NCBI GenBank assembly: GCA_046704485.1
Contig: JBJKRU010000141.1
Coordinates: 1 to 41,633, forward strand
DNA from: Candidatus Limnocylindrales bacterium
GTDB taxonomy: Bacteria; Chloroflexota; Limnocylindria; Limnocylindrales; CSP1-4
Reading direction: 5' to 3'
Length of the DNA stretch: 41,633 bases
Part shown: piece by piece, positions 2,362 to 19,387 of the stretch
How positions within the stretch are numbered: position 1 is the first letter of the stretch
Layout of the letters: each line of letters starts with the position of its first letter
Translations under genes and position numbers: made by a program
Notes under the pieces: model-generated
What the model saw: the letters and a program-made list of their open reading frames with translations, nothing else
Database searches by the model: none
Told to the model about the DNA's origin: nothing

Positions 2362-4082
2362 CAGTCGAAGCGCCGGTCGAGGTATCCCACGCCGTGCGCG
2401 CCCGGGGTGTCCACCACGGAGGCGCGGTCGAGGAGGACGTTGAGCTCCTCGCACGACACCTCGGGCAGGAGCAGGCACGCGTGACACGCCGCTAGGTTGA
2501 GGGCGTCCACACCGCTTCCGAGCGCCTCCGAACACAAGGGGTCAGAGGAACACCACGAGGCCCGCTCGATCACCTCCAGGACTGCCGCCTGAAGCCGGGT
2601 GGCGTTGGCCAGCGCGACGACTCCACCGAGGCTGCCAGCTGAGTCGGAGGACGCGGTGTAGATCAGGATCCCCGCCATCGCGTCGCTGGCGTAGATCCGC
2701 TCGCGGAGCGAGGCTGCGGGGTAGCCGCATTCGAGGGCCCACTGGTTGATCAGGAGGTGGGCAAGCGTGTGAAGCATCACGAACCGCGGGGTGATGCGAC
2801 GGTCGGGTTGCAGGCCTCTTGCCGCGAACCTGGCACGGTAGCGGTCGTCAATCATGCGAATGCGGTTGGCGACAGCTGGCTGGGCCTCCCACCGCCTAAT
2901 CCGATCTGCGTTGGCCTTTAGGAAGATCCCCTCGCCGCTGACGGACATCGCCGGCAGCCACCCCGGGCTCCCTTCGCTGAGGGAGGCGCGCCGCTCCGGC
3001 AGATCGGCTGGCGCTGGCGGCACTACTCGCGTGAAAGCCTCGAGGACGCGAACTTCCCGAAGGCGCGGTACGGCCATAACGGCGTCGAACCACCCACCGA
3101 GATTGCTGCCACCGAGGGGTACGGGTTCGCAAACGAACTCCTGGTCCGCGGCAGTCCCCTCACGACCGCGGACGAGCGCCTCGTACTCCTCGGCGCGAAG
3201 GGAATCGCTATCGCCGACGCCACCATCCTCATCCAGCTGTGAGCGCCTGCGCATGGCAGCTGCAACGAGGTCCTGGACCTTATAGCCAGTCTTCTCTGCG
3301 ATCCCTTCGAGGGCCGCGGGGAGGGTTTCGGCCGGCAGGACACGGAAGATGTTCCAGTGCTTCTCTAGCACCTGGAATAGGCCCTCCGACCAAGGCGGGA
3401 TCGAGAGGGCGGAGCGCAGAACGGGGAACCACACGTTCGAGGCACCGCGTTGAAGGGTGCGCGGAATCTCACCGCAGGAAGAAGCAGCCGCCTTGATCCA
3501 CGGGGCCCGGCCAGAGCAGGTTCCGAGCTGCCGCAGCGCGCTCGCATGGAAGGATCCGTCCATGCTCCGTTCTCGGCCACACGAGCATGAGATCACCACG
3601 TCGCGGAGCGATGCCGTTGCGCCAGCGATGCTCAAGCGAAGGCTGTGCTGCCCATCGCGCGATTGATGCCCCGCGTGCACCCAACGGAAGTAGGGAAAGT
3701 CATCGATGTGCCCGTGCGGGCACGCCACGATGAATCGCGACGGGACGAGGAGCGCCTCGCAGAGCTCGCACTTGTTGCGGTCGGGAGTCGTGAACTCGTG
3801 GTGCGGCGCGAGGCGGCCACAGCTCGGGCACGAGTTCCACAGGGGGAAGCGGACGACAGGAACGTCCGGCTTGTGATCGTCGCCGCTCGCTGGCGGCTCG
3901 ACGAAACCCTCTACGCCAAGCTGCTTCTCGAGCCTCGGCTCGTGAATGTTCTGATCCTGAACCTTCCAATAGTCGAGGCCGGCGACCATGAATGACTCGT
4001 CGCCAAGAGCGATGACAGACCCAACGCCGTACGTCGTGACGAGCTGATGGTGCCGGGCCTCGCCCTTGAGGACTGGTGACAT
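2361..4082 (-). CDS. drmB: DISARM DrmB-like protein (DUF1998 / MrfA-type zinc-binding C-terminal domain)
   Basis: 573 aa. N-terminus YGVGSVIALGDESFMVAGLDYW. Cys/His clusters CPSCGR..CELCEA and CPHGHIDDFPYFRW. C-terminal DUF1998-like LHTLAHLLINQ, IYTASSDSAGSLGG, CSSDPLCS, AACHACLLLPEVSCEELNVLLDR. Lies 4 nt downstream of a DrmA-like helicase. Confidence 0.8.
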   Translation of the reverse strand: MSPVLKGEARHHQLVTTYGVGSVIALGDESFMVAGLDYWKVQDQNIHEPRLEKQLGVEGFVEPPASGDDHKPDVPVVRFPLWNSCPSCGRLAPHHEFTTPDRNKCELCEALLVPSRFIVACPHGHIDDFPYFRWVHAGHQSRDGQHSLRLSIAGATASLRDVVISCSCGRERSMDGSFHASALRQLGTCSGRAPWIKAAASSCGEIPRTLQRGASNVWFPVLRSALSIPPWSEGLFQVLEKHWNIFRVLPAETLPAALEGIAEKTGYKVQDLVAAAMRRRSQLDEDGGVGDSDSLRAEEYEALVRGREGTAADQEFVCEPVPLGGSNLGGWFDAVMAVPRLREVRVLEAFTRVVPPAPADLPERRASLSEGSPGWLPAMSVSGEGIFLKANADRIRRWEAQPAVANRIRMIDDRYRARFAARGLQPDRRITPRFVMLHTLAHLLINQWALECGYPAASLRERIYASDAMAGILIYTASSDSAGSLGGVVALANATRLQAAVLEVIERASWCSSDPLCSEALGSGVDALNLAACHACLLLPEVSCEELNVLLDRASVVDTPGAHGVGYLDRRFD

Positions 4083-4086
4083 CCGC

Positions 4087-7000
4087 CTACCTCAGAAGGA
4101 ACAGGTTCGAGGACCGGTCGACGTCGCGCAGGCTCCAGAGCGTCCCGAAGGGCCCGCCCTTCTCTCGGTCTCCTGCGTCTGGGTCCGCGGCATCGACAAG
4201 CAGCGCCAGCTCGGGGTCCTTGTCGCTGTAGCGGAGCCTTCGATCTTCACGCGCGCGGGCGACCCAGTGGGCGATGATTTCGTCGAGGTGATCCCGAACC
4301 GCTTGGGCGTCCTCGCTCGATACGAACTTCGCGCGCTCGACAAGCTCGTCCCGGATCCCGTTGACGAGGTCCAGGTGCTTGTCGACCTGGCTCGCGCTGC
4401 CGTTGTCGCGAAGGGCGACAATGCGCATGCGCACGGCGGCGACAAGGGCGGCGTGGAGTGCTCGATCTCGAGCCCTAGGCGAGTACGGAGTGACGCTCGA
4501 GGACTCAACCTGCCGGTAAAGCGCGCCATGATAGCCGGCGAAGCCTTCGTAGTGCGACCGGTCGCGCGACCTGGCCGAGTTGAGCAGGACCACGACGAGA
4601 CCGGGGTAGCGGCGGCCGACTCGACTGGTGGCCTGGATGTACTCAGCGGTGCCCTGTGGCTGCCCCATCACGACCATGAGGCCGAGTCGGTCGATGTCGA
4701 CGCCGACAGAGATCATGTTGGTCGCGAGCACGACGTCCAGGGCATCGGGGCCGGACGTGCTGAGCTGGTCGAGGTATCCGGGGATGTCCGCTGACGACTC
4801 CCGGCTGGTGAGTTCAATGACCTTGTCGATCGGGCGGCGATCGTCTTGGTTCGGCTCGAGCAGCTTCAGGCGGTCCACGACGTCGTTGTGGACCTGCATC
4901 CGCGCTCCACTGAGCACGCGCAGGCTGTTGAAGTAGCCTAGGAGGGTCCAATAGGGGTCTACCGCCGCCTGTCCGGCTGCCGAGGCGTACGCCGATTGGA
5001 GCAAACGGGCATACGACCGGACAAGCAGTGTCGTCTGGCTGCTTCCCGGTGCCATGAGTCCGACGTAGAGGCGAGTCCCCTTCCGGTCCCGGCTCGCCTC
5101 AACCGCGAAGAACGAGTCGCGCGAGTCGATCCCCGCAGGCGGGAACTGACGGACTTCCCGGGCGAACAGGGCGATCGTTTGGGCTTGCGCACGCCTGATC
5201 GTTGCCGTGGACGCCACCACCTTCGGCCGTGCGCCGGAGGTGCTGGCGACGCCGTCGATCGCAGCCTCGTAGAGGCCAGCTAGCGTTCCTAGCGGGCCTG
5301 CGATGAGGTGGAGCTCGTCCTGAACGATGAGCTCTGGCGGCGGTGTGCCCGCCCGGTCGAGATTGAACAACGCGTGCGCCTGGGGACGCCAGGCGATACC
5401 AGCGAACTTGTCAGCGGTGGCGATGATCAGGGTCGGATGATGGTCGTAGACGTCATCATCGACGACGAAGACGGGCAGGTCCCGGTAGAACGGGCATTTG
5501 TCGTTTGGACAGCTGATGATCAGCCGGGACTTGTCGAAGGACAGGTTGTAGTTCCGCTCGTCCAGCTGGGTTCGGCACCACGGGCAGCTCTTGAGCTGAA
5601 CAGGGTTCGCTTGCTCGATGGTGACGCCGGCACGCAGCTTCTTGAGCTGGGCTCGGGCTTCGTCCCTGGTGTTGGGAGTGCCGCCCTGCCCAACGTAGAG
5701 CCCCAGCGAGACAGGGGTCTGACCGAGGCGAGCCGCATCCTCGCGCCGAAGAGTCTCGCAGGCGCAGATGAGCGAAGCTGCGCGCTCGAACTGCTGAATG
5801 GTCAAGAGTCGCAACGTGTAGCGCATGAGCGAGGTGACGCCAGCCCCGCTGACGCCGAGGCGCAGCCGGCGGTGGAAGATCGTGAACGCGATCAGCCCGA
5901 GGTAAGCCTCGGTCTTGCCACCGCCCGTGGGGAACCAGAGAAGGTCCACGAGGTCGCGATCCGCCGATCCGGGGTCGACCACGCCTTCGATGCACAGCAG
6001 GATGAACGCGAGCTGGAAGGGGTACCAGGAAATCCCGGTCTCGGAAGGACCTCCGCTCGATCGACCAGACCGATGCCACTCGGCGCGCGACCGGACCGTG
6101 AGAAGGGCGCGACTCGCGAGCTGGAAGGCCTCCCAGGTCGCCGCATCCCGTTCGAGCAGGTCGATCCCGGAACTTATCCGTTGGCACGCCTCAGCGCAGT
6201 CCCTCAGATGGGCGGCGGCGGCTGATCGGTGTACGCCGTCGACTGGCAACTCCCGTTGGACCGCTATCCAGGCTGCATAGGTGGCGGGGAGTTCGCGAAG
6301 CGCGGCGACGACCCTGTCCCGGGCTCCGTTCGCCAAGAAAGCAAGATCCAGGCACTTGAGCTCGATGTCCGGGTTGGACTCCGCGAGGCGAAGCTCATAT
6401 GCCGGGGTGTAGGTCGTTCCGATGGACTTCGGGGGGTCCTGAGTGCGATCCCAGTCGACGCCGCACCCATGCCCCACCGCGTAGGTGCGCGAGTGCCGAT
6501 AGAGGAGTGCGCTCGATCGAGCGTCGGCGTCGATCGCGGACTCCGACGCATTGGGTCGCTCGACGAATGGAGATGTGCCTCCGACGGCGGCCTCGACGGT
6601 CATGTGCGACTGGAAGAACGAGAAGGCGTCCTTCTCGCCACTCGCCACTGGCACGCGGTGCGAGTTGACAAGGGCGAGGGTCACGGCCCACGAGCCCGCC
6701 GCCCACCTCGAGCGCGCGAACAGCTCGAGACCATCCGCGACCGGCCGCCGACTACCGGAATCGGGCGCGCCGATATCGAGACGGATCTCCGCGGCAATCG
6801 GGACGCGTCTCCACGACGCGGCGCCGCGTCCATCGGCGTGCGGGGTCCTCTTGTCCGGCGGCACCTGCTCGCCAACCTGCTCGTACCGTGCGCACGACAC
6901 ATGCACGTCGAGCGCGCCGCGAAAGTCGCCGTGCACGGCGAACGAGAAGCCGACCGATGACGGGTAGCGGATGTGCGCCATGGACACACCCGGATCCTCC

Positions 7001-7230
7001 GACTGGCCGTCCGCGCCGTCCTCGGCCGCGTCGTTGTCCAGCTCGGGGGCGATCAAGTCGGTCGATTGCGGGTACAGGACGCCGACGATGTAGCTGGTGA
7101 TCGGGGCGTCGTCGATCACCTCTGTCGGCGTGCGTGGGCCCTCGAGGTCCGTGCGCAGAGCCTCGATGAGCGCGGCGCGGACCCGGTATTGGGCATCTAG
7201 CAGCAGCTCGCTCACTTCTCGTCGCCCCAC
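4087..7230 (-). CDS. drmA: DISARM DrmA-like SF2 helicase
   Basis: 1047 aa. N-terminal YIVGVLYPQ and RYPSSVGFSF segments. Helicase motifs WFPTGGGKTEAYLGL (I), QDELHLIAGPLGT (II), ASTATI (III), LATNMISVGVDIDRLGLMVV (V), QATSRVGRRYPG (VI). GTG start at 7230; an alternative GTG at 7215 would give a GTGA overlap with the upstream stop. Confidence 0.75.
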   Translation of the reverse strand: MGRREVSELLLDAQYRVRAALIEALRTDLEGPRTPTEVIDDAPITSYIVGVLYPQSTDLIAPELDNDAAEDGADGQSEDPGVSMAHIRYPSSVGFSFAVHGDFRGALDVHVSCARYEQVGEQVPPDKRTPHADGRGAASWRRVPIAAEIRLDIGAPDSGSRRPVADGLELFARSRWAAGSWAVTLALVNSHRVPVASGEKDAFSFFQSHMTVEAAVGGTSPFVERPNASESAIDADARSSALLYRHSRTYAVGHGCGVDWDRTQDPPKSIGTTYTPAYELRLAESNPDIELKCLDLAFLANGARDRVVAALRELPATYAAWIAVQRELPVDGVHRSAAAAHLRDCAEACQRISSGIDLLERDAATWEAFQLASRALLTVRSRAEWHRSGRSSGGPSETGISWYPFQLAFILLCIEGVVDPGSADRDLVDLLWFPTGGGKTEAYLGLIAFTIFHRRLRLGVSGAGVTSLMRYTLRLLTIQQFERAASLICACETLRREDAARLGQTPVSLGLYVGQGGTPNTRDEARAQLKKLRAGVTIEQANPVQLKSCPWCRTQLDERNYNLSFDKSRLIISCPNDKCPFYRDLPVFVVDDDVYDHHPTLIIATADKFAGIAWRPQAHALFNLDRAGTPPPELIVQDELHLIAGPLGTLAGLYEAAIDGVASTSGARPKVVASTATIRRAQAQTIALFAREVRQFPPAGIDSRDSFFAVEASRDRKGTRLYVGLMAPGSSQTTLLVRSYARLLQSAYASAAGQAAVDPYWTLLGYFNSLRVLSGARMQVHNDVVDRLKLLEPNQDDRRPIDKVIELTSRESSADIPGYLDQLSTSGPDALDVVLATNMISVGVDIDRLGLMVVMGQPQGTAEYIQATSRVGRRYPGLVVVLLNSARSRDRSHYEGFAGYHGALYRQVESSSVTPYSPRARDRALHAALVAAVRMRIVALRDNGSASQVDKHLDLVNGIRDELVERAKFVSSEDAQAVRDHLDEIIAHWVARAREDRRLRYSDKDPELALLVDAADPDAGDREKGGPFGTLWSLRDVDRSSNLFLLR

Positions 7231-9032
7231 TGGACGTCAGCTAGCCCGTAGACCCTCGGGCGCAGCCAGAGGCCGGATGCGCCGAGCCCGTTCCGGGTGC
7301 TCTCGGCGCTACTGCCCCCAACCGTCTCAATGCCGGCCACGCGAAGCCCGGTCAAGGTGACTGGAAACGGGTCACCACCCGCGGCGCGCTGCCCCTCGGC
7401 GATCGCCTGCGAGAAGCCCTCTGACGTCACCCCGATCTGCCTCCCGTTGTGGTCAAGAGAGTAGACGGCGCGGGCGGTTCCATCCACGACGGATCGTCTG
7501 AGCCTGAGCTTGACTGGATCGCCGACGGCAACGGAAGACGAGAGGTACTTTTGAATCTCTGAAGGTCGGGCGTCGATGTGCGCCGCACCTGCTGGGATGG
7601 CCCATTCGACGTCGTCGGACAGGACTTCGAGCTGCCGCAGGCGGCCGCGCGCTCCCGACCGCACCCACCGATTGTCCTGCCCGCGCCGCCGCCTCAGGCC
7701 GCGTGACTCGGGCTCCGGCAGCAAGTAGAGCTCCTCGCGAGCCCGGGTCATGCCGACATAGGCCACTCTGAGGTCGTCGGGTCCTTCAAGGTCGGCGGAT
7801 TCAACCCCGCAGAGGAACACAACATCCCACTCGAGGCCCTTGGCTCGATGGATCGTCGAAACTGAAACTTGGCTAGAAGGCGGCTCGACCAGCTCGACGG
7901 GGAGCCTTCGGGTTCGCAGCCTCGAGACGAGGACGCGGAGCGACAACTCGGGCGTCGATCGACCCTCCGCTCGCTTCAGCGCCTTCCACGCACGTTCCGG
8001 CTCGGCGTCGAGGGAGGCATCAGCGACCAGCCGATCAAGGAAGTCGGCCTTGGCGATCGTCGGGTACTGGTAGCCGGACATGGTGCGGGCAAGCCAGGCT
8101 CCTATCCACGCATCACTGGCGTCCCCGTGCAGTCGGTGAGGGATGCCCGCCGCGTCCAGGCCGCGCGAGACAGTCAGGGCTTGGCATCCGTACCGGCATA
8201 GGACAGCTGCGCTCCCATGATCGGCAGTGGCCGTCCTGATGATCATGGCTGCTCGGGGTAGCTCGAACGGGTGGAGCCGGTCGAGCTCCGACGCGATCGA
8301 GCCCGCAGTCGGAGTCCCCGTCCGGCCAAGGGCCCAGGCCCGTACTGCGTGGCCGCTGTCGGCAACCCGCGCGGCGAGCGCTGTCTTCGCCCGGAAGTTC
8401 TTCGTCAGCTCTGCAACGTGGGGCTTGGGCTGACGCTCGAGCACTCGGGTCAGGAACTGGCGGCTCGTGAGCTTCGATGTGGACTCATCGAGCGTCCAGT
8501 CGTATACGCCTTGGGCTGGGTCGCCGAGAAGGGTCATCCCGGCATCCGGCGAGAGGCGCTGGAGCATCCGGTCGACGAACTCAGCCCGGTCGCCCACAAG
8601 ATCTTGGACCTCGTCGACTACCACGTGCCTGAACTCCCGCACGATTGCCGCGATCTCCTCATCGTGCTCGACGAGCCGGGTCGCACTCCTGATCCTGCCA
8701 GCGTAGGACTCCTCGTGCCAGTCGCCGTAGGGCTCGTGGACCGCCAGCAATCGACTCGCGTAGGAGTCGATGGTGGCGATCGGGAACCCGGCCACCACAG
8801 CGCCTTCGCTGTGGACCCTCGACTTCAGGGCACTGACTGCGGCGTTTGAGAAGCTCAGGATCAGCACGGCGGAAGGCGACAGCCCTGCGGACGAGCACAG
8901 CCAGCTGAGACGCCGGGCCACGACCTCGGTCTTGCCAGTTCCGGCCGCAGCGAGCACGACCACCCGGGAGGTGATCTCCGCCTCGACGACCTGGCGCTGC
9001 TCGCTCGTCAGGGGATTAGGCTGAATCGTCAT
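7212..9032 (-). CDS. UvrD/Rep-like SF1 helicase with an unassigned C-terminal extension of about 160 aa
   Basis: Track ORF is 7212..9215. I trimmed the start to ATG 9032..9030 (MTIQPNPLTSEQRQVV), which forms an ATGA overlap with the stop of the upstream giant gene. Motifs: LAAAGTGKTEVVA, ILSFSNAAVSAL, VVDEVQDL, LLGDPAQGVY, LTKNFRA, STIHRAKGLEWDVVFL, YVGMTRAREELYLL. Confidence 0.85.
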   Translation of the reverse strand: MTIQPNPLTSEQRQVVEAEITSRVVVLAAAGTGKTEVVARRLSWLCSSAGLSPSAVLILSFSNAAVSALKSRVHSEGAVVAGFPIATIDSYASRLLAVHEPYGDWHEESYAGRIRSATRLVEHDEEIAAIVREFRHVVVDEVQDLVGDRAEFVDRMLQRLSPDAGMTLLGDPAQGVYDWTLDESTSKLTSRQFLTRVLERQPKPHVAELTKNFRAKTALAARVADSGHAVRAWALGRTGTPTAGSIASELDRLHPFELPRAAMIIRTATADHGSAAVLCRYGCQALTVSRGLDAAGIPHRLHGDASDAWIGAWLARTMSGYQYPTIAKADFLDRLVADASLDAEPERAWKALKRAEGRSTPELSLRVLVSRLRTRRLPVELVEPPSSQVSVSTIHRAKGLEWDVVFLCGVESADLEGPDDLRVAYVGMTRAREELYLLPEPESRGLRRRRGQDNRWVRSGARGRLRQLEVLSDDVEWAIPAGAAHIDARPSEIQKYLSSSVAVGDPVKLRLRRSVVDGTARAVYSLDHNGRQIGVTSEGFSQAIAEGQRAAGGDPFPVTLTGLRVAGIETVGGSSAESTRNGLGASGLWLRPRVYGLADVQWGDEK

Positions 9033-12000
9033 CCCCTGTCGAAGAGGTAGTCGAAGTGGCGGAATGCGAGCTGCCCGCCGAAGCGAAGGATGTTGTCCTC
9101 CACGTTCACGATCAAGCACTCGTCCTTTCCGCCGTTCATCGGGCCGCGTAGCCCGCGCCCGATCATCTGCTGGTAGAGGCCCGGGCTGAGGGTTGGGCGG
9201 GCGACGATGACGCACCGAACGGATGGGGCGTCGAAACCCTCAGCGAGCACTCCGTAGTTGGTCAGTACGCGGAGGTCGCCGTGGTTGAACTGGTCGACGT
9301 AGTGCCGCCGCGCCGCCGGGTTGGTATTGCCGTGGATGACCGCCGCTCGAACGCCCCGCAGACCGAGAATGGCGGCCAGCTGCTGCGCATGCGAGACCGA
9401 CGTCGCGAAGACGAGGATCTTCCATGTCGGGTCGAGTTGGAGGACGGTGCGTAGGATCGTCTCGTTTCGGGATTGGTCCTCGCCGAGCTGCTCCTCGATC
9501 TCGATTGGCAGCCGCTGCTCCCGCATCGCCTTGTCGGCCTGCTCCTCGCTCAGGTCGACGGTCCCGCCCGTGAGGATCTGCTGCTTCGCCCGCGCGAGCA
9601 CCCGCATTTCCTGAAGCGCTTCGGTGGGGTGGTCTCCGAGCACGCCGTCATCCAGCATGGTGGAGCCGTAACGTCGCAGGAGGCGTTCCGTACCCTCGAC
9701 GCTAGACCCCTTGAACGGGGTCGCAGTGAGACCCAGCAGTGGGCAGCGGTCTCGCTCCTTTTCCCGGCCGAGTCCGAGCCAGTGGAAGATCTTCGTGTAC
9801 CCCGTTTCTGTGGAGCCGTGCGCTTCGTCGACGATCACGACCGAGGCACGCGCCAGCCAGTCGTACTCGGGCTGCTCCCTCACGGAGGCGAGCTGCGCCG
9901 ACGTCGCGACGACGACGTGGGCCTCGCCTCGCTCGGAGGCCTCGGCGTCGCGGCCCTCCCACAGGCGGCTGATGCGGAGGCGGATCCTGGGACCGACGCT
10001 TCGCCAGACGTAGGCCCACGTCTGCACGGCCTGCTCGCAGAGCTCTTGCGTCGGCGCGCTCCAGAGGATAGGCCCGCGCATTCCGTCGTCGCGGATCGCC
10101 CTCACGAGCGCCTCTACGGTGACGCGCGTCTTGCCCGCCCCTGTTGGCAGGGAGAGGAGCGCTCGCTTGTTCTCGCGGCTGGCGAGGTGTAGTCGGATGC
10201 GCCGCGTCAGCTCCTCCTGGAACGGGTGGAGAGGTGGCAGCTCGGCGGGTCCGTCGACCTCCAGGAGTGGATCGAGGCGAGGCTCCTCGAAGCCCGCGTA
10301 CTCCCGTGGAAGGCCGAGGGCCTGCACGAAGCGGCGGGCGTTGGGCGCCCCACTCCACCGTTCCGGCGGCGCCAACCCCCTCTGTAGGAGCTCGTGCCGG
10401 AACTCCCGGAAGAGGTCGATGCCGTACACGCTTGAGGCCAGCCCAGCCAGCGCGAAGTCGTCGAGTGCGCCTTCGGTCTCCTCCACGCCGGCGATCATCT
10501 GCGGGGAGAGATGCCGCCTGATCGCCTCGGCGCCCACTGCCCGCAGGAGCTTGGCACGCTCGTCCGGCTCTTGGCGGACCTCGGCAAGGAGCTGACCACG
10601 CCGATCGTTCTCGCGTCCGGAGAGGATCTCCTGCACGTCCGCGTCGTTGAGGCCGAGGTCAAGCTCAGCGCTCAGCCGGTGGAGCAGCGCTGCATCGTTG
10701 GGCGAGTCCGGTTCGCGCCAATACAGCTTCTCCGCCTCGCGGACGAAGTTGATCCTCGACGCCCGGAGCCCACCGGGCCCGACAGAGACGAATCGCAGGT
10801 CACTGCACCGAACCAGTTCCAGCTGCCTGTCGCGGCGCTGGACGAAGGGTCGGAGGTCGGGAAACGCCTCGAGCAGCGGGACCGGGCCCTGGAGCGGAAC
10901 CGCATCCACGTGAGTCTCGATGAGCCCTCGGAGGGGCGCCACGCCCCATGCCGCAGCGAGATCCCCCGCGAGGACGGCATCGGGCAGATAGAGGACGGCC
11001 GTGTCGGACTCCGCCGCGGCGGCAGCCTCGTTCGGATCAGCGGTCAGGAACACGGCGTCGGTGGGGCGTACCTCCGGTCTGCCGCCGACGACGCAGCGTA
11101 GTCGTGACGGTCGGGCAGCATGACGAAACGCCGTCAGGTACAGGGCAGCGGCATTCGCTGGCGACACGTCCTCGGCCGCGGTCAGGGCGGCGGCCCACTG
11201 TAGGCTGTCCAGATCTGCTGGGCTTTCCGGCAATCCAAGGCGGCGCGCCCATTGCTCGGTGCACGTGACCACGGGGAGTACGGAGCCTAGGTGGCGAAGG
11301 CCGGGACCCACCGCCTGCGAGGCTGGCGCTGGACCGAGGCTCGTTGGGAGTAACCCATACTGCCGGACGAACCAGCTGACTGGGTCTATGACCTCGATCG
11401 CCGGATACGTCTTCATGGTGGCGTGCTCGACCTTCCATATCCGGTGGTCGGGCTCGGTGCCGACGATCTGCGCCGTGAACCGGGCAACCGCGGGCTCCGA
11501 CAGGTGGAGCATCGGCGACAGTGGTCCGAGGACGCCCGAGAGGCTGAGCTTCAGGTAGTCACGATCCGGGCGCTGGCGAAGGTCGCGGGTCGCGGCCTCG
11601 TATGAGTCTCGGGCGTCCGAGAGGTAGTCGTCGAGCCACCATTCGTTCGGGAATGCTCCGTCGTGGATCGGGCCTGCCTGGACCCCGAGCCCGCGAACAA
11701 CGTCCAGCGTCCCGTCGTGGTAGGCCACGTCGACGGTACTCCGAGCGTCATCCCCGTCGACCTCGGTGAGGACGCCGCCCGGCAGGAGTACGTACCGTCG
11801 ATCCTCGAAGGTGCCCCCAGCGGTCCTGAACTTGACAAGGGAACTCGCGACTGGCCTTGCTCGCAGGAGGGAGAGCGCTCGGTCCCCCGGGAGCTGGGCC
11901 GTGTCCCGCCAGAACCGGTCCCAGTCGCCGAAGCCGTGCTCGATCTGTCGCAGCAAGCCAGCGTACTCGTCCTCGAGCCCGACGTCGCGGATCTGGCGGT

Positions 12001-13747
12001 CCAGCAGGATCCGGTACGCCTCCGGATCCTGTTGAACCTCGGGATGGACGCGGAGCAGCTCGGTCGTCGACCCGGGCCTGTAGAGGAACACCGTCCGGGG
12101 GTCGACGGCAGTGGCGCTTCCGTCGGCGGTGAGAAGGATCTGAGCGGCGCGAACAGACCCCTCCTCGTGCCGACGGAGGTTCGCCGAGAGGCACGCCTCA
12201 GCCACCTTGAGGGCAGCGATGCTCGACGCCGGCTGGCCGTCGGCTGCCAGCGCCTCGAGCCAGGAGGAGTAGTCCGCGGCAGCGTTGCGGTCGCCGTGGA
12301 GGCGCTCAGCCTTCGACCGCCGCTCTCGCGTGGTCAGGACCGAGTGGTGCAGCCAGTCGCGCGGACGGCCTTCGAACGCCTCCCAGGTCGAGAGGGCCGC
12401 CTCCGGAGCCTCGCTCGGCGGGAACTTCACCTCGCTTCGCGGTCGCAGGAGGCCGGATTGGTCTGGAAGGCAGGGCATATGCGACGCGAGTGCATAGACC
12501 TGATCGCCGATGACGCCGTCGGCCCAGCTGGGGGATTCCCTGCCGCGGGCAGGGAGGATGTCGAAGAGGCGCCCGGGATCCTCTGGCGTCACGAGACGCG
12601 CGAGGTTCTCGGCGACAAGCTCCGCCGCCACCTGAACGAGCTCCCGGTTGAAGTCGCCCTCGAGGAGCGCCTGCCGGTCGTTGTTCGTCTTCCACGGCGC
12701 GTTGATGATGCCGGAGAGGGTTGTCTCTTCCTCTGTTGGAAAGAACGCCCAGAAGCGCCCCCGCCTGAGTTGGCCAGCAGTCCGCACTGCCCAGATAACC
12801 GGCACGACATCGCGGCGCGAGATCTCGCCTGCGTCGGCCTTGGCTGCGTCGGACGGTCGGTGGTCGCGCCGGAAAGTCATCCAGCGCGTGGCGCGGCCAT
12901 CCTCGATGAGCTCCAGCTCCTCCCCTGACGGCCGGACGCTTCCCACCCGGTACAGCCCGCTGGTGCGGTCCTCAATGGCAAGCGTTCCCACGTGGGGAGA
13001 GAAGAGCAGGAACTCTGCGGGGAACCGCTGCAGGTCCTCAGAGAGCCACTTGGCTGCGTCCAGGTCTCGCGGCAACTTGACCACAGTGGTCGCCCAGGCC
13101 ATGAGCTCCCGGAGGACCTCGTCGTCGGCCGCCGCGCCATCTGGCTCAAGAGGTACTGCCGTGCGGAGATAGGGCACGCGCTCGGCTCGCGGCCTGATCT
13201 GCCGGATCTGGCGTTCCGCTTCGGTTGGGTCGAAGCGGAACGACCCGGACCGGCTGAGGAACATGGGACGCCGTGTGATCGCGAGGACGGACTTGAAGCC
13301 GAGGCCGAAGCGGCCGATCTCGCTGCCTCTCTTGACGGAGAGGTCCGACATCAGGAGGGCGTTAACGCCGTCCACGGACAGGGGGCGCCCCTCGTTCGCG
13401 CAGTAGAGGGCGTGGTCCGTGAGGACGAGCTTCACCATGCCGCCCGGCTGGCTTATCAGTTCGTCGGCGGCGTTCTGGACAAGTTCGTAGACCTGCCGCC
13501 TGCCGTACCCCCCTTGGGCCGTGCCGAGCTCTTTGTTGGCATGCTCGTCGATCAGCAGGTGATCGTCGCGATACGTCGCGAGAGCCTTTGCGGATCGTTC
13601 GGCGACCTGGCTCGCCACAGTCGAGGAGGTGCCAGCCCAATCGGTGCCGCTGTAGATCGCGTCAGGGCGTTCGACATGTCGAAGCGGCAGCGGTGTCGGC
13701 TGGGCCGCGCTCGCCCCCGGTCCCGTCACCCAGCTTGCCCCCTGCAT
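9029..13747 (-). CDS. 1572-aa fusion protein: N-terminal sacsin/MORC-type GHKL ATPase, long unassigned central region, C-terminal Res-III/DEAH SF2 helicase
   Basis: GHKL (Bergerat) motifs: VYELVQNAADE, CANEGRPLSVDG, GRFGLGFKSVL. C-terminal helicase starts near residue 1197 (about 10159..9029): SLPTGAGKTRV, VIVDEAHGS, GLTATPFKG, VFATSVSHAQQLA, VLAEGFDAPSVRCVIVARP, QQMIGRGLRG. The antisense ORFs 11663..12928 and 12992..14161 are artefacts. Confidence 0.8.
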   Translation of the reverse strand: MQGASWVTGPGASAAQPTPLPLRHVERPDAIYSGTDWAGTSSTVASQVAERSAKALATYRDDHLLIDEHANKELGTAQGGYGRRQVYELVQNAADELISQPGGMVKLVLTDHALYCANEGRPLSVDGVNALLMSDLSVKRGSEIGRFGLGFKSVLAITRRPMFLSRSGSFRFDPTEAERQIRQIRPRAERVPYLRTAVPLEPDGAAADDEVLRELMAWATTVVKLPRDLDAAKWLSEDLQRFPAEFLLFSPHVGTLAIEDRTSGLYRVGSVRPSGEELELIEDGRATRWMTFRRDHRPSDAAKADAGEISRRDVVPVIWAVRTAGQLRRGRFWAFFPTEEETTLSGIINAPWKTNNDRQALLEGDFNRELVQVAAELVAENLARLVTPEDPGRLFDILPARGRESPSWADGVIGDQVYALASHMPCLPDQSGLLRPRSEVKFPPSEAPEAALSTWEAFEGRPRDWLHHSVLTTRERRSKAERLHGDRNAAADYSSWLEALAADGQPASSIAALKVAEACLSANLRRHEEGSVRAAQILLTADGSATAVDPRTVFLYRPGSTTELLRVHPEVQQDPEAYRILLDRQIRDVGLEDEYAGLLRQIEHGFGDWDRFWRDTAQLPGDRALSLLRARPVASSLVKFRTAGGTFEDRRYVLLPGGVLTEVDGDDARSTVDVAYHDGTLDVVRGLGVQAGPIHDGAFPNEWWLDDYLSDARDSYEAATRDLRQRPDRDYLKLSLSGVLGPLSPMLHLSEPAVARFTAQIVGTEPDHRIWKVEHATMKTYPAIEVIDPVSWFVRQYGLLPTSLGPAPASQAVGPGLRHLGSVLPVVTCTEQWARRLGLPESPADLDSLQWAAALTAAEDVSPANAAALYLTAFRHAARPSRLRCVVGGRPEVRPTDAVFLTADPNEAAAAAESDTAVLYLPDAVLAGDLAAAWGVAPLRGLIETHVDAVPLQGPVPLLEAFPDLRPFVQRRDRQLELVRCSDLRFVSVGPGGLRASRINFVREAEKLYWREPDSPNDAALLHRLSAELDLGLNDADVQEILSGRENDRRGQLLAEVRQEPDERAKLLRAVGAEAIRRHLSPQMIAGVEETEGALDDFALAGLASSVYGIDLFREFRHELLQRGLAPPERWSGAPNARRFVQALGLPREYAGFEEPRLDPLLEVDGPAELPPLHPFQEELTRRIRLHLASRENKRALLSLPTGAGKTRVTVEALVRAIRDDGMRGPILWSAPTQELCEQAVQTWAYVWRSVGPRIRLRISRLWEGRDAEASERGEAHVVVATSAQLASVREQPEYDWLARASVVIVDEAHGSTETGYTKIFHWLGLGREKERDRCPLLGLTATPFKGSSVEGTERLLRRYGSTMLDDGVLGDHPTEALQEMRVLARAKQQILTGGTVDLSEEQADKAMREQRLPIEIEEQLGEDQSRNETILRTVLQLDPTWKILVFATSVSHAQQLAAILGLRGVRAAVIHGNTNPAARRHYVDQFNHGDLRVLTNYGVLAEGFDAPSVRCVIVARPTLSPGLYQQMIGRGLRGPMNGGKDECLIVNVEDNILRFGGQLAFRHFDYLFDRG

Positions 13748-13891
13748 CGGCCTGCGTTGCGTCGGCCCTGCGTTGAGCGCCCGGCCTCGCCACCCGCAGT
13801 GTTACCCATCCGAGAGACGGCTCGCCAGCCCCCAGGAGTCCTGCATCCGCGCGGACACGGAGGAGGCGACGTGGTGCCCATCTTCTCGCCT

Positions 13892-15247
13892 TCAGGAGAG
13901 TCGGACCACCGCGAGATCCTCCGTGGACGGCGCCTCGCGGACCCCACCCAACTGGCCGATCTCGAGCTGCTCGGCGTCCGCGGCTGTTACCCTGGCGCGC
14001 GGCGGAGAGTCCAGCAGCGGGAGAACGCTCTGTCGGGCGATGTGCTCGGCGAGGAGCGGAGGGACGGCGTTCCCGATCTGCTTAGCGATCTGAACCTTGC
14101 TACCGCACCAGAGGAACCCGTCTGGGAACGTCTGGAGCACGGACCCTTCAAGCAAGGTTAGGGCGCGGTCCTGGGAGCGATATGGGTCGGACTCGTGCCA
14201 CTCGGGGTGCAGGTATCGCCCCTTCTCAGGCTTGAAGAACTCCGTCCGAATCGTCACGGACGGTTGTTCCCAGGACAGCCTTCCCATAACGTCCGTGGTG
14301 CCCGACCGCTTCTTCCGCCAACAGTCAAAGAGCAACTCCTCCGGCAAGTCGAAGCGGTTGCCGCCGGGTGGAACGTGTCGATACCGCTCGATGGATGCCG
14401 GGCGATAGGTCCGACCGACATGGATCTCGAGGCCGTGGAACGGGCCTGGGATCCGCTGGCCCGCGAACTCGATCGAGTTGCCCGGCAGGTCGATCGCTGA
14501 TGGCGCGAGTGGGATGGAGTTGGCCTCGAATGCCTCTCGGATCGTTGCCCAAGACACAACCGACCCATCCGGGGAGCCATGTCGCTGGTGACTCGGGACC
14601 GGGCCCGAGGGCTTGCCCACTCGAGACCCGATCACGAAGGCTCTGCGCCTGCGCTGCGGCACGCCGAAGTCCTCGGCGTTGAGCTCCCCTGACCAGATCT
14701 CATAGTCCCTCAGGGCGCCCGAGCCGAGTGCCTCAAGGAGAAGTTCGTAGTCCGGCGACTGGCGGAAGCGCGCCACGTTCTCGATCACGAACACTCGGGG
14801 TTCAGCGCGGCGGACGACCTCCAAGTAGTGGCGCCAGAGCTTGTTCCTCGGATCGTCCACGTCGCGCCGCCCGAGTCCCGAGAAGCCCTGACATGGCGGA
14901 CCGCCCACCACCACGTCAGCCTTCGGCACCTGCTCGAGGTCGAGCTTCGCGATGTCGCCGACGTGGACGATGGCACCGAAGTTCGCGGCGTAGGTGGCCG
15001 CCGCGGAGGGATCGAACTCGACAGCGAGCACGGGGCGAAGACCGGCGACCACGAAGCCTTGCGTGAGGCCGCCGCACCCGGCGAACAGATCGATGAGCGT
15101 GTGCTGAGTCACAGGCACATCGTATTTGACGGCTCCATGCAGATGCACGGTCCGGCCTGGGTCGCTGGAGGCAGCGTCGGACCTGCATCGCAGCGTCCCG
15201 ATGCACCGAGGGTCTCGGTTGCCGCGGTGGCTAGCCATTCGAAGCAC
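13892..15247 (-). CDS. DNA (cytosine-5)-methyltransferase (Dcm family; candidate DrmMII-type partner)
   Basis: Motif I DLFAGCGG, motif IV GGPPCQGFS, ENV, QRRRRAF, motif X GNAVPPLLAEHIA. The start is uncertain: in-frame GTGs down to 15112 would remove an Arg-rich leader. Confidence 0.9.
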   Translation of the reverse strand: MLRMASHRGNRDPRCIGTLRCRSDAASSDPGRTVHLHGAVKYDVPVTQHTLIDLFAGCGGLTQGFVVAGLRPVLAVEFDPSAAATYAANFGAIVHVGDIAKLDLEQVPKADVVVGGPPCQGFSGLGRRDVDDPRNKLWRHYLEVVRRAEPRVFVIENVARFRQSPDYELLLEALGSGALRDYEIWSGELNAEDFGVPQRRRRAFVIGSRVGKPSGPVPSHQRHGSPDGSVVSWATIREAFEANSIPLAPSAIDLPGNSIEFAGQRIPGPFHGLEIHVGRTYRPASIERYRHVPPGGNRFDLPEELLFDCWRKKRSGTTDVMGRLSWEQPSVTIRTEFFKPEKGRYLHPEWHESDPYRSQDRALTLLEGSVLQTFPDGFLWCGSKVQIAKQIGNAVPPLLAEHIARQSVLPLLDSPPRARVTAADAEQLEIGQLGGVREAPSTEDLAVVRLS

Positions 15248-15285
15248 CGCGAGGCTCCCTTGCCTCGAAGGGCGGAGGCGCCTGG

Positions 15286-16722
15286 TCAGCCCGCCGAGAC
15301 CCCGTAGAGGATCTCGGTGGGCAGCCGGCTGGACAATAGCCCGTCGTACTCGTCATCGACCTGGCGGATGTATGTCGGGACATCCACGCCACGTAGAGCA
15401 GCGTTCATCACGACCGTCTCGCCAACATGCCGCCCATTGACCAGCAGGAGCGGATAGCGGTCGGTCATGACTTCGCGCTGGGCCTGCTCTGTGTAGTGGC
15501 CGGTGGTAACGAAGGCGCCGACCCAGCCTCGATCGAGCCGGGCGACCACCCTCGCCAGATCCAGGCCGCCCGTGCCCGCCGCCTCGATCCCTCGGCACTT
15601 CGCCTGCCCTAGGACGACGAGGCTAAGACTGGAGGGACCTCCCCCGAGGTCGAGTCGGCCGACGAAATCGACGCCGCCATCGCCGGCCCGCTTCGTGATC
15701 CAGCCGCGGCGGTACTGGCCGGTCTCGTTGAGGCGCGATCCGACGACTTCAGACGCCAACGCCTCGAACCTATGCTCGCCCACGCCCTCCCAGCTGCCTC
15801 CCGTCTTGTAGTGGGAGATGACGGCATCGAGTGCGGCGGCCGCAGGCGTTCCGGGTTCAGGGCGCTGCTCGGCCGTGCTCAGAAGCCGATATCGCGACAC
15901 CGACTGGCGGACCTTGTCGATCTCGGCGGTGCCGTGATCGATCCACCGCCTCCAATTGGCCGGCGCAATCTGGGCGCTCTGCTCCAGGTTCCAGCTGGGG
16001 TCTCGCCGGCTCGCGATCCACTCCCATGCGAGGGTCAGGTTCTCAGGGCTCAAGTCGACGAGTGCGCAGTCGAACGCATAGTTCACGAACGTCCGACCTT
16101 GCCGGTCAACCTGCGTGACGCGCTGAGCGCGCTCGATCACCCCAACGCCGATGAACCGCCAGTAGCCCTTGGCATGGCCCTCATGGACGTGACCTTCGAG
16201 GAAGATCAGCGGGGCGGCGGCGAGGCGATCCTGCCTACGGCCGGATTGGTGCAGGGCGAACTGCTCGAGGATGGAGCGATTGCCTGGCGCGCCAAGTGGG
16301 TCAGCTCCGCGGTCGGCCTTGTTGTCTCCGTAGTAGCGGACGAAACCAGCGTGGGCATCCAGTTCGTCGTGCCATGGAGTCCAGTCGGTGCCCGCACGGT
16401 GTGGCTTTGACGCGATCAAGATCGCCGGTCGTCGAACACCATCGGAAGCATCGACCTTGACAATCGAATTGATGCCGTGCTCGAGCTGAACGCGTCCGGC
16501 CCCTGCCAGGCCAGGCCAGGTCGGCCACCTCGTGACGTTGAAGAAGTTGCGATCAGGACCGATGAACTCGACTTCGGGCCCCGGCGAGGGCTTCGAGTAC
16601 CTGTATCGCTCGAAGAGCCTCACGGCCTCCCTCCAGCCGAACGACGCCCTAGCTCGTATCTCGCTCGATGATCGCACATCGATCTCGGCGCGCACCATCC
16701 CGGTTTCCGAGCCGACGCACAT
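15286..16722 (-). CDS. restriction endonuclease with a C-terminal Mrr-type PD-(D/E)xK catalytic domain; N-terminal domain of about 230 aa may be an SRA/PUA-like base reader
   Basis: C-terminus: FEALASEVV, RAGDGGVDFVGRL, LVVLGQAKCR, GAFVTTGHYT (Mrr_cat pattern D-G-G-x-D ... Q-A-K). N-terminus: PAILIASKPHRAG, GFVRYYGDNK, APGNRSIL, PLIFLEG, KGYWRFIGVGVIE. This is only reminiscent of modified-cytosine-reader domains and was not verified. Confidence 0.7.
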   Translation of the reverse strand: MCVGSETGMVRAEIDVRSSSEIRARASFGWREAVRLFERYRYSKPSPGPEVEFIGPDRNFFNVTRWPTWPGLAGAGRVQLEHGINSIVKVDASDGVRRPAILIASKPHRAGTDWTPWHDELDAHAGFVRYYGDNKADRGADPLGAPGNRSILEQFALHQSGRRQDRLAAAPLIFLEGHVHEGHAKGYWRFIGVGVIERAQRVTQVDRQGRTFVNYAFDCALVDLSPENLTLAWEWIASRRDPSWNLEQSAQIAPANWRRWIDHGTAEIDKVRQSVSRYRLLSTAEQRPEPGTPAAAALDAVISHYKTGGSWEGVGEHRFEALASEVVGSRLNETGQYRRGWITKRAGDGGVDFVGRLDLGGGPSSLSLVVLGQAKCRGIEAAGTGGLDLARVVARLDRGWVGAFVTTGHYTEQAQREVMTDRYPLLLVNGRHVGETVVMNAALRGVDVPTYIRQVDDEYDGLLSSRLPTEILYGVSAG

Positions 16723-16759
16723 GTCACGCCTCTAGGGGCAAGTTCGCCTGGTTCGTCAT

Positions 16760-17515
16760 CTAGGCCTCAGCCTGGCGCCAGTCCTGCATCTGGACCACCT
16801 GAGCCACCCTGTCGAAAGACCAGCGCAGGGCCTTCCCGTACTCGAGCAAGCCGTCCTTACGCACAACGTCGACGATCGTCTGACCTGCCGCTGACCCCCA
16901 AAGGATCCGGCGCCAAGGGACCTCGACAAGCGACTCATCGCCGCCTTCGGCGTGGTACAGCACGAAGAGCGGGACCTCCATGACCACGACCGGGACACAA
17001 AGCGCTAACCCAGAGTGGTCTCGCGCCCACCCAACAGATCCGTCCATCGCCTGGCTCATTGCCCCATAGGCGACATCGTTGCTCTCGTCCGTTGCCTCAA
17101 CCACCGCGAAGGCCACATGTTCCTCGTCATAGGGCCCGCGACCCAGTGGAAACGCGCGCGTCAAGAACTCGGCGTCCGCCACGAACGAATCGGCCATAGC
17201 CGGGGACATGATCGGCACCCAGCCGCACTCCGCCAGCCGAAGCTTCGACTCGCGTGCTATCCAGGCGCCGCCGCCAGGCCCGGAATGCTTGCACTCGATG
17301 ATTGCGAGCGCTTCAACGCGAGACGTCAGCCGAGCGTCCGAGACCAAGTCAATTTCGCGGACCTTCCCTGTTGCCGCATCGACGTAGTGCCGACCAAGGG
17401 TCGATCGAAATCCCCAGGGCTTGAGTCCCTCGGCGGTTTGGCGCTCTAGGCCATATCCCTGATTGCCTACCCATTTCTCGACATCGTCGAGAGTCCGGTA
17501 TGACTTTCTGGCCAA
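16760..17515 (-). CDS. hypothetical protein with a PD-(D/E)xK nuclease-like motif
   Basis: 251 aa. KVREIDLVSDARLTSRVEALAIIECKHS gives the D...E-x-K arrangement of the restriction-endonuclease fold. I recognise no other family. Confidence 0.5.
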   Translation of the reverse strand: MARKSYRTLDDVEKWVGNQGYGLERQTAEGLKPWGFRSTLGRHYVDAATGKVREIDLVSDARLTSRVEALAIIECKHSGPGGGAWIARESKLRLAECGWVPIMSPAMADSFVADAEFLTRAFPLGRGPYDEEHVAFAVVEATDESNDVAYGAMSQAMDGSVGWARDHSGLALCVPVVVMEVPLFVLYHAEGGDESLVEVPWRRILWGSAAGQTIVDVVRKDGLLEYGKALRWSFDRVAQVVQMQDWRQAEA

Positions 17516-17641
17516 AGCAGCAATCCTCCCGATGGGACTCGTCCAGCGCGGGCCGCGGCGCCTGGTTGTCGAGCACGATCTTGGGTCAGCGAGACGCAGT
17601 GCGGGGGTCGCTTGCCGACCTGGCCTCGCTGGCGCCCCCGG

Positions 17642-18373: not shown

Positions 18374-18401
18374 GGCTGGTCGGACGTTGCGAGGGCGCCG
18401 A

Positions 18402-18938: not shown

Positions 18939-19387
18939 GACGCCAATGCCAGGGACGACTGATGCAAACGGTCGCGCCCGGAAGTAGCGTCAGTCGGGTT
19001 GGCTGCGACCGTTGGGTTGGCAGCCGCGGATGCCCTCTCGACATGGCTAACCAAGTACGGGCGCAAGTCGGTGATTGACGGGTTCGCCGCGAAATCGAAG
19101 GCGACGACCCGAGGCTCGAAGACGAGTCTCCAGCGCAGGTCGAGCGCATCGGAGATCCGATTGAGGACCCCGATCCGGAAGTCCCGCTCACCCGATTCCA
19201 GGCGTGCGATCACCGACTGCGTGGTCCCGATCATGTCGGCCAGTTGACGTTGAGTCAGGTCGTGCTCATCTCGCAGGGCCAAGATCGCGCCCGCAGCGTC
19301 AGCAAACGGCATGATCTCCCGCAGATCGGCCTCGAACTCCTCCTCAGATCCGTAGCGCTCCCACACGCTGGACCGGCGATCTAGCAT
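18935..19387 (-). CDS. higA: XRE-family HTH antitoxin (HigA-like) with a C-terminal extension
   Basis: 150 aa. HTH: LTQRQLADMIGTTQSVIARLESGERDFRIGVLNRISDAL. A tail of about 50 aa follows the HTH domain, the position of a chaperone-addiction segment in known TAC antitoxins. Overlaps both the toxin and the chaperone genes. Confidence 0.75.
   Translation of the reverse strand: MLDRRSSVWERYGSEEEFEADLREIMPFADAAGAILALRDEHDLTQRQLADMIGTTQSVIARLESGERDFRIGVLNRISDALDLRWRLVFEPRVVAFDFAANPSITDLRPYLVSHVERASAAANPTVAANPTDATSGRDRLHQSSLALAS

Follow-up and report, generated by a model that had tools for sequence, protein, structure and literature searches.

What role does a protein play that carries a GHKL (Bergerat-fold) ATPase at one end and a helicase at the other, and how does it relate to the genes of the DISARM defence system beside which it is encoded? 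The question is raised by a stretch of DNA of 41,633 nucleotides from Candidatus Limnocylindrales bacterium (Chloroflexota; assembly GCA_046704485.1, contig JBJKRU010000141.1, positions 1 to 41,633), which is referred to here as the window, and by one gene in it, whose product of 1572 residues we call the GHKL-helicase. A first-pass annotation, made from the letters of the sequence, had described this product as a sacsin/MORC-type ATPase fused to a superfamily 2 (SF2) helicase within a DrmAB operon. The best explanation overall, to which we give a probability of about 0.6, is that the GHKL-helicase is an obligate subunit of an unnamed, DISARM-like cassette of the restriction-modification type and acts in it by the mechanism proposed below.

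Gene order in the window and in related loci

The reading frame of the GHKL-helicase is open across 1572 codons, and the GC content at third codon positions (GC3) is 0.83 in frame versus 0.73 and 0.49 in the other two frames. Every motif quoted in the first-pass annotation is present in the translation, with ELVQNAADE at residues 88-96 and GRFGLGFKS at 145-153 in the N-terminal part, and PTGAGKT at 1201-1207, DEAH at 1307-1310, TATP at 1341-1344 and QMIGRGLR at 1527-1534 in the C-terminal part. A name for the whole protein was obtained from none of PADLOC v2, NCBIfam and Pfam.

Nine large open reading frames (ORFs) of the island that surrounds the gene were scanned against Pfam, PADLOC and NCBIfam, and three small ORFs against Pfam alone. 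The order on the minus strand is AspBHI-like restriction enzyme, C5 methyltransferase, GHKL-helicase, UvrD/GajB-like helicase, DrmA, DrmB and NERD-helicase (Table 1). The methyltransferase lies 144 bp upstream of the GHKL-helicase. The stop codon of the latter overlaps the ATG of the UvrD-like gene (ATGA, 4 nt), and the two genes are predicted to be translationally coupled; the stop codon of DrmB overlaps the start of the NERD-helicase gene (TGATG). DrmA and DrmB both clear their NCBIfam cut-offs, which bears out the DrmAB setting recognised at first pass. No DrmC or other PLD nuclease was found among the scanned island ORFs or within 10 kb on either side of five related loci with Pfam annotation, which also show no SNF2 or DrmE gene, no model of DrmD (SNF2) or DrmE matches the nine large ORFs, and the small ORFs contain no SNF2 match in Pfam. 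The GHKL-helicase itself was considered as a DrmD or DrmE homologue and rejected, as no match was obtained and PADLOC is also null at E ≤ 1 on residues 401-1170. The C5 methyltransferase is presumed to be the self-marking component of the cassette. The NERD nuclease-helicase, in which the D...EVK motif of the NERD domain is visible in the translation, is the probable effector in the place of DrmC.

Table 1. Positions of the GHKL-helicase, its parts and the neighbouring cassette genes in the window
Feature	Positions	Strand	Basis
GHKL-helicase, whole ORF, 1572 residues	9029-13747	-	sacsin/Hsp90-type GHKL, novel middle region and SF2 helicase
GHKL (Bergerat) ATP-binding domain, residues ~41-250	12998-13627	-	NF047352, Foldseek, conservation
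Hsp90-middle/transducer-like beta-rich domain, residues ~251-365	12653-12997	-	Foldseek alignment length, AlphaFold2 model
Unassigned middle region, residues ~449-1150, mixed alpha/beta	10298-12403	-	null searches, AlphaFold2 model
RadD-like SF2 DEAH helicase core, residues 1173-1550	9098-10231	-	Pfam, RadD match, motifs
Portable module, residues 48-864	11156-13606	-	BLASTP to helicase-less p2MP protein
AspBHI-like methyl-directed restriction enzyme	15286-16722	-	RE_AspBHI_N and Mrr_cat; PADLOC mREase_II 5e-131
C5 cytosine DNA methyltransferase	13892-15247	-	Pfam DNA_methylase 9.5e-57; PADLOC DruM2 6e-101, DrmMII 4e-47
UvrD/GajB-like superfamily 1 (SF1) helicase	7212-9032	-	Pfam UvrD-helicase 7.8e-24; PADLOC GajB 1.8e-28
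DrmA, short form, DISARM helicase	4087-7230	-	NF038325 974 bits (cut-off 950); PADLOC DrmA 2.2e-237
DrmB (DUF1998/MZB zinc-binding, DrmA partner)	2361-4082	-	NF038324 498.9 bits (cut-off 240); Pfam MZB 3.7e-9
NERD (PD-(D/E)xK) nuclease fused to SF1 helicase	595-2361	-	Pfam NERD 3.6e-11; PADLOC RTasNERD-Hel 2.4e-49

Is this arrangement peculiar to one contig? The GHKL-helicase, the UvrD-like helicase, DrmA and DrmB stand in this order on one strand in 77 of the 81 informative loci, and the loci that share the UvrD-DrmA-DrmB synteny belong to Actinomycetota, Acidobacteriota, Chloroflexota, Planctomycetota and Abditibacteriota. In 71 of 85 related loci a C5 methyltransferase could be detected, and the five loci with precomputed Pfam calls have the same gene order. 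The run of five genes from the GHKL-helicase to the NERD-helicase is repeated in Bryobacteraceae, on other metagenomic contigs and on one genome contig of 5.9 Mb; the NERD-helicase gene is confined to the clade of the window. The cassette order of C5 methyltransferase, GHKL-helicase, UvrD-like helicase, DrmA, DrmB and, in the window's clade, NERD-helicase is conserved across phyla. Judged from the sequences, the GHKL-helicase is likely an obligate subunit of a DrmAB-based defence cassette.

The family itself is large. A word-index search with the GHKL-helicase returned 2210 proteins at E ≤ 1e-5. The best 120 homologues listed cover 93-100% of the query, are about 1490-1830 residues long and have 41-76% identity; the most specific name that any of them bears is "DEAD/DEAH box helicase family protein", and their Pfam records contain only helicase or SACS families, as is the case in the query. 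An exhaustive HMMER search with the middle region alone found 496 clusters (50% identity) at E ≤ 1e-3 and 168 at E ≤ 1e-30, most of which are of ~1530-1570 residues and have the same layout. Among 185,579 genomes, one per species, at least 398 stretches encode a relative. The taxonomy was taken from the best 80 of these at least 398 stretches, which are mostly from Streptomyces and other Actinomycetota and also include Acidimicrobiia, Acidobacteriaceae, Planctomycetota, Chloroflexia, Dehalococcoidia, Solirubrobacterales and Abditibacterium. A collection of 50,697 phage records gave one weak match, and the family is not phage-borne. The DISARM variant of which the GHKL-helicase is a regular part is widespread. 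The GHKL-helicase is not an orphan and not a product of chance.

Domains of the GHKL-helicase

The N-terminal part was assigned with profiles and with a structural model. The NCBIfam model NF047352, "sacsin N-terminal ATP-binding-like", reaches 62.6 bits against a cut-off of 50, and the Pfam model SACS (PF25794) gives 22-25 bits, under its gathering cut-off of 32.8. An AlphaFold2 model of residues 1-1170, obtained with 53 homologues as input, has a mean predicted local distance difference test score (pLDDT) of 87.3. Foldseek comparison of this model with the PDB retrieved full-length Hsp90 (N and middle domains; 6.8e-5, probability 1.0), the crystal structure of sacsin SR1 (5v46; 2e-3, probability 1.0) and MORC4, which at 7.6e-3 is weaker than Hsp90 or sacsin. 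Because of these matches, the GHKL fold proposed at first pass is confirmed at the level of the model. The Foldseek alignments to full-length Hsp90 extend over 404-716 columns and exceed the matches to the N-domain only.

The residues of the ATP site were compared across the 53 homologues and across a set of 77 sequences with 32-41% identity within the first 1170 residues; because motifs I and VI were each partly included in the scan patterns, some of the conservation among the 77 is present by construction. Motif I, E-x3-N-x2-D, which contains the general base and the Mg-binding Asn, corresponds to E88, N92 and D95, is invariant in both sets and has E116, N120 and D123 as its counterparts in sacsin (PMC9880540 Table 1). 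The adenine contact N118-x-G120 and the lid G145-R-F-G148-L-G150-F-K152 are invariant in the 77 sequences, so that E88, N92, D95, N118, G145-G150 and K152, as well as R358 further downstream, are found in 77/77. N118 sits at the position of Hsp90 Asp79, where sacsin likewise has an Asn, N160 (PMC9880540), and the lid aligns with G188-R189-F-G191-I-G193-F of sacsin (PMC9880540 Table 1). The sole low-confidence stretch within the modelled GHKL domain, residues 136-146, runs up to and into the beginning of the Gly-rich lid motif; the lid of sacsin is also of low confidence in its own model.

In Hsp90 and sacsin the catalytic Arg is borne by a loop that joins a strand to a long helix. In the model of the GHKL-helicase, the candidate catalytic loop NAPWKTNNDRQ (residues 349-359) is situated between a strand at 347-349 and a long helix at 365-380. 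R358 of this loop is a candidate catalytic residue because it is invariant; K353 and D357 are present in 76/77. The catalytic residues of both ATPases of the fusion protein are invariant or nearly so in the 77 sequences.

The "MORC-type" label given at first pass has no sequence-level support. When residues 1-450 were scanned against Pfam at E ≤ 1, SACS alone was retrieved and no MORC or HATPase_c_3 profile, and MORC/paraMORC membership was rejected on the lack of a MORC profile match and on the Asn118 adenine contact and GRFGxGF lid, which are exactly those of sacsin. The label "Hsp90/sacsin-type" is supported. With the sacsin repeat (SIRPT) and the N and middle domains of Hsp90 the GHKL-helicase shares E-x3-N-x2-D, the GRFGxGF lid, the candidate catalytic Arg on a loop preceding a long helix and, in the case of sacsin, the Asn for Hsp90 Asp79; the ~1150 residues that precede its helicase correspond to about one SIRPT (at least 1100 residues). 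In contrast to the GHKL-helicase, sacsin is a eukaryotic chaperone without a helicase, and the Pfam SACS score of the former is below threshold.

The center of the protein had been described at first pass as some 800 residues that could not be placed. No domain can be assigned to it here either; the span is reduced to ~700 residues (~450-1150), because residues ~250-365 form the Hsp90-middle/transducer-like domain. Pfam and PADLOC scans of residues 401-1170 returned nothing at E ≤ 1. A separate AlphaFold2 model of residues 440-1170 has a pLDDT of 91.6 and a predicted template modelling score (pTM) of 0.69. The structure search suggested for this region in the first-pass annotation was run with that model, and Foldseek found no match at E ≤ 0.001 in the PDB or BFVD (best values 0.22, with probability 0.05, and 0.25, respectively). 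Mutual comparison of nine segments with hhalign detected no internal repeats, the best probability being 5.7%. The region is acidic, with a net charge of -10 across residues 651-880, and a DNA-binding charge signature was dropped as a candidate for that reason. The commonest residue is shared by 0.40-0.53 of the sequences in the middle region versus 0.65-0.76 in the GHKL domain, and the invariant residues of the middle region are nearly all W, P or G, together with R476. These ~700 residues look like a scaffold rather than an enzyme.

The complete DEAH helicase noted at the C-terminus in the first-pass annotation is evident from the Pfam matches (ResIII 4.8e-18, DEAD 1.2e-15, Helicase_C 4.6e-17) and from the motifs, all of which are present. 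K1206 and T1207 are invariant in 77/77, and DEAH and QxxGRxxR are conserved in 76/77. When PDB sequences were searched with the family profile, all the matches listed were helicases, and none connected the protein with sacsin at sequence level. Among solved structures the closest is E. coli RadD (6jde; E-value 2.2e-21 for the single sequence and 4.5e-36 for the profile), which has in common with the GHKL-helicase both RecA lobes and the Walker A, DEAH, TATP and QxxGRxxR motifs. This kinship is what would be expected if the protein were a housekeeping DNA-repair helicase, that is, a RadD paralogue with an accessory ATPase and no role in defence. Such a role is highly improbable. Only the first ~357 of the 586 residues of RadD match, the chain of the GHKL-helicase stops ~20 residues past the second RecA lobe, and the RadD equivalog of NCBIfam gives 117.6 bits against a cut-off of 720; with a score so far under the cut-off, the helicase is RadD-like and not RadD. 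The patchy spread of the family (at least 398 stretches among the 185,579 species genomes), the location beside a methylase and a restriction enzyme in an island of low GC content, and the linkage to DISARM genes in 77 of 81 informative loci also argue against a housekeeping function.

Known systems and the proposed role

Class 2 of DISARM, as Ofir et al. are said to have described it in 2018, consists of drmE-drmA-drmB-drmC-drmMII. The cassette of the window resembles DISARM in its split DrmA helicase and DrmB (DUF1998), both over the NCBIfam DISARM cut-offs, in the C5 methyltransferase of DrmMII/DruM2 type alongside them, and in its location in a defence island. It differs in that the DrmC PLD nuclease, DrmE and DrmD are missing among the scanned island ORFs, and the GHKL-helicase fusion, the UvrD/GajB-like helicase and, in the window's clade, the NERD-nuclease/SF1-helicase are found in their place. 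A survey of YprA-family helicases by Bell et al. (2025, 10.1101/2025.09.15.676423) mentions "many uncharacterized DISARM-like classes" in the DISARM-like clade of these enzymes, and it contains no GHKL, sacsin or MORC wording.

The same survey describes ARMADA type II as composed of ArmA, an SNF2 helicase, ArmB, a PglX methylase, ArmC, a YprA helicase, and ArmD, a GajB-like helicase with RelE (10.1101/2025.09.15.676423); ARMADA is defined there by an unsplit YprA helicase together with a BrxHII-like SNF2 helicase and a PglX-like methylase. The cassette is built to the same plan, in which a YprA-family helicase is combined with an accessory SF2 helicase, a methylase and a UvrD/GajB-like helicase that bears a nuclease domain. 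In contrast to ARMADA, the YprA helicase of the window is split into DrmA and DrmB, a C5 enzyme and not PglX serves as methylase, and the accessory helicase, with its GHKL front end, resembles RadD and not SNF2. The cassette was not accepted as ARMADA because DrmA and DrmB are separate genes and no SNF2 helicase or PglX methylase was found. By analogy with these systems, the GHKL-helicase may fill the slot of DrmD (SNF2) or DrmE in classical DISARM and that of ArmA in ARMADA. The first-pass suggestion of a "sensor or clamp" that replaces DrmE or DrmD would fit the absence of DrmC, DrmD and DrmE and the fixed position of the gene.

In the literature that was searched, no paper pairs DrmA or DrmB with GHKL, MORC or Hsp90-like terms, sacsin and phage defence are connected only via HEPN domains, and neither the cassette nor the GHKL-helicase fusion is described; Tiamat and TmtA come up there only as mentions in surveys. 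The principle is not new, since Iyer and colleagues predicted in 2008, in general terms, GHKL ATPases in restriction-like operons (PMC2292703).

The closest named protein is TmtA of the Tiamat system. The best PADLOC match to the GHKL-helicase is TmtA (PDLC03964, 1.4e-45), with residues 41-449 aligned to positions 6-421 of 1538; other TmtA profile matches reach position 533 of 1486 at most, and in relatives of the GHKL-helicase the homology extends to profile position ~640. The sacsin-type GHKL and transducer domains at the N-termini of the two proteins are homologous, and the overall lengths are comparable (about 1300-1780 residues). Nevertheless, the match is confined to the initial quarter to third of the TmtA profiles, and a full-length match was not obtained. 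TmtA, which is reported to carry a PD-(D/E)xK nuclease (10.1101/2024.10.26.620412), has no helicase, and no TmtA profile matches the helicase of the fusion protein. Moreover, TmtA acts alone, whereas the GHKL-helicase is operonic with DrmAB. An identification of the GHKL-helicase as TmtA was rejected in view of the partial profile match, the coupling to the UvrD-like gene and the fixed synteny in 77/81. The first-pass remark that the fusion is not recognised as part of any named defence system needs one qualification: no named family with the same architecture was found, as TmtA lacks a helicase, but the N-terminal module is homologous to that of TmtA.

The homology to this single-gene system also raises the question of whether the GHKL-helicase is a self-contained, Tiamat-like defence protein that merely lies beside an independent DrmAB module. 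Related GHKL-helicase fusions without DrmAB, the four informative loci in which DrmAB does not follow and the general clustering of defence genes are compatible with such independence. We consider it improbable, as 77 of the 81 informative loci, which come from several phyla, keep the same order at an identity of only 32-41% (first 1170 residues) and the gene has the 4-nt start/stop overlap with the UvrD-like gene. DrmA and DrmB alone would furthermore be incomplete, because neither DrmC nor DrmD/E stands beside them, and the TmtA homology is limited to the first ~420-530 of 1300-1780 profile positions.

A third setting of the N-terminal part is provided by the Arthrobacter plasmid p2MP. Its protein WP_173160688, a "hypothetical protein" of 1096 residues, has 35% identity to residues 48-864 of the GHKL-helicase (E 1e-117, BLASTP) and, like the latter, is encoded directly downstream of a C5 methyltransferase; it differs in having no fused helicase. 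The order in the p2MP operon is C5 methyltransferase, sacsin-like module and then MzaB-, MzaD- and MzaC-like genes. The front end of the GHKL-helicase, residues ~40-860, looks like a portable module, because it is also present in TmtA, in this Mza-like operon and in distant fusions, and the fusion architecture extends beyond the clade that is linked to DrmAB. Two of the distant sacsin-GHKL/ResIII-helicase fusions outside DrmAB contexts were located among the related loci, which are numbered with the prefix L (L087, 10001-15594; L088, 3804-14374). A Fic-domain gene follows the first and overlaps it by 4 nt, and the second has a faint PLDc_2 protein and an SNF2-like helicase of 1195 residues encoded upstream of it; they may represent further unnamed systems based on the same fusion.

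How might the cassette work? The specific division of labour that we propose for its proteins is tentative. The GHKL module would be an ATP-gated switch that may close on DNA or on a partner. Its cycle would allow the SF2 motor to act on incoming DNA without the 5-methylcytosine mark, and the SF2 motor and the UvrD-like helicase would then remodel or unwind this DNA into a single-stranded substrate. A single-stranded substrate activates DrmAB according to Bravo et al. (2022), as cited in 10.1101/2025.09.15.676423. The NERD nuclease-helicase would finally degrade the DNA.

Several observations weigh against this scheme or against parts of it. In the large Streptomyces clade the cassette ends with DrmB and has no NERD-helicase, so the effector step is not universal. 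Four informative loci have no DrmAB genes downstream of the relative of the GHKL-helicase, and the distant fusions, which have a shorter middle region, exist without DrmAB; a link to DrmAB is thus not inherent in this type of protein. Direct sensing of DNA by the middle region is not supported, because the region is acidic and contains no recognisable DNA-binding fold. The Asp of the adenine contact is replaced by Asn as in sacsin, where nucleotide binding has been debated. Finally, a clamp would have to dimerise through its N-terminal part; doubt has been cast on dimerisation of sacsin-type domains (PMC9880540), and the possibility that these domains do not dimerise weakens a MORC-like clamp model.

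The doubt about dimerisation (PMC9880540) favours the main alternative explanation, in which the GHKL module would be an Hsp90/sacsin-like protein remodeller and not a DNA clamp. As an ATP-driven chaperone of assembly or activation, it would load or release the helicases encoded beside it (UvrD-like, DrmAB and NERD-helicase), with the C-terminal helicase serving only as a DNA tether. It would agree with the closest folds, which are Hsp90 N and middle domains and sacsin SR1 and not MutL or GyrB, with the sacsin-specific ATP site (the Asn adenine contact and the GRFGxGF lid), and with the acidic middle region, whose W, P and G invariants and R476 form no enzymatic constellation. The use of the same module with three unrelated effector sets is also in line with remodelling. 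Yet we regard this explanation as unlikely. No client-binding or co-chaperone features are recognisable, the covalent fusion to a complete and conserved SF2 motor suggests a nucleic acid substrate, and the known GHKL proteins of restriction-like operons have all been predicted to act on DNA (PMC2292703; paraMORC, PMC3710099).

Surroundings of the cassette and wider meaning

The GC content is 65-68% at positions 1-20000 of the window and 72-75% at 20800-41633, with the step at ~20 kb. The defence cassette probably sits in a horizontally acquired island, as the GC content is lower than that of the DNA beyond. The flank of the island carries ordinary actinomycete genes, namely an EryCIII-like glycosyltransferase, an adenylate cyclase-AAA-TPR regulator and an ABC-2 transporter. 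At the island edge, a DUF429 protein (17642-18529, minus strand; Pfam 7.4e-24) has weak PADLOC PDC-S44 matches (5e-10) and no homologue in any related locus. Between its gene and the restriction enzyme lies an ORF of 251 residues (16760-17515, minus strand) with no Pfam, NCBIfam or PADLOC match and no tblastn match in the 85 related loci. Three consecutive small ORFs of 178, 150 and 153 residues with overlapping ends (18402-19842, minus strand), of which the middle one encodes an HTH_3 (Xre-type) protein and the first and third are without a Pfam match, may form a regulatory or toxin-antitoxin-like module at the island border. A promoter and terminator scan of the island found fewer sites than in shuffles and is uninformative in this high-GC DNA.

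The AspBHI-like, 5-methylcytosine-dependent enzyme directly adjoins the C5 methyltransferase. This pairing recurs in a 76%-identical locus (L004, 3103-4440) with 87% identity and in a Nonomuraea genome (L010, around position 5850) with 40% identity. As a methyl-directed nuclease is thus placed beside a cytosine methylase, the site specificities of the two must not overlap. In the UvrD-like protein (maximal ORF of 667 residues), UvrD_C ends at residue ~498, and an unassigned C-terminal tail of ~170 residues (7212-~7720, minus strand) extends beyond the last Pfam helicase match.

Related loci show further variation. A small ORF of 191-235 residues lies between the methylase, or Vsr, and the GHKL-helicase in L001 (9258-9965) and L002 (9213-9788), with tblastn matches also in L010, L012, L014 and L015. 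These ORFs share a repeated segment of ~66 residues with 39% identity and may encode a regulator; no such ORF is present in the 144 bp between methylase and GHKL-helicase in the window. The clade without the NERD-helicase gene comprises L039 and most Streptomyces loci (L017-L085). In L039, DrmB is followed only by an HTH_31/DUF5753 gene. The C5 methylase is located 5-6 kb upstream, past an opposite-strand block that contains a DUF6339 protein and an HTH_3 protein of 711 residues. No nuclease was recognised in the scanned flanks of the Streptomyces-clade loci. The few loci without DrmAB downstream have other genes of defence type as neighbours: L040 encodes an SbcC-like AAA_23 ATPase, a ResIII/HA helicase and a UvrD-like protein of 817 residues (2385-8104, 14722-17175), and L023 encodes an SIR2_2 protein and a DUF4020 protein (5806-9322).

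What does the cassette mean for the biology of these systems? We rate it as a common, unnamed DISARM-like class that links Tiamat, the Mza-like operon and DISARM-like systems through one module. For DISARM it is a natural experiment, in which DrmAB is kept and every accessory gene is swapped for the GHKL-helicase, the UvrD-like helicase and the NERD-helicase; the arrangement is genetically accessible, because it is common in Streptomyces and other Actinomycetota. Defence finders overlook the protein, and current genome pipelines give it no name beyond "DEAD/DEAH box helicase family protein". The middle region contributes a confident model of ~700 residues without a structural relative in the PDB or BFVD. 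As one shared module ties Tiamat to two methylase-linked multi-gene systems, it offers a handle on the function of that module. The sacsin repeat is mutated in the human ataxia ARSACS, and the human protein, with 4579 residues, is hard to study. Judged from the structural model, the GHKL-helicase is possibly a bacterial counterpart of this repeat.

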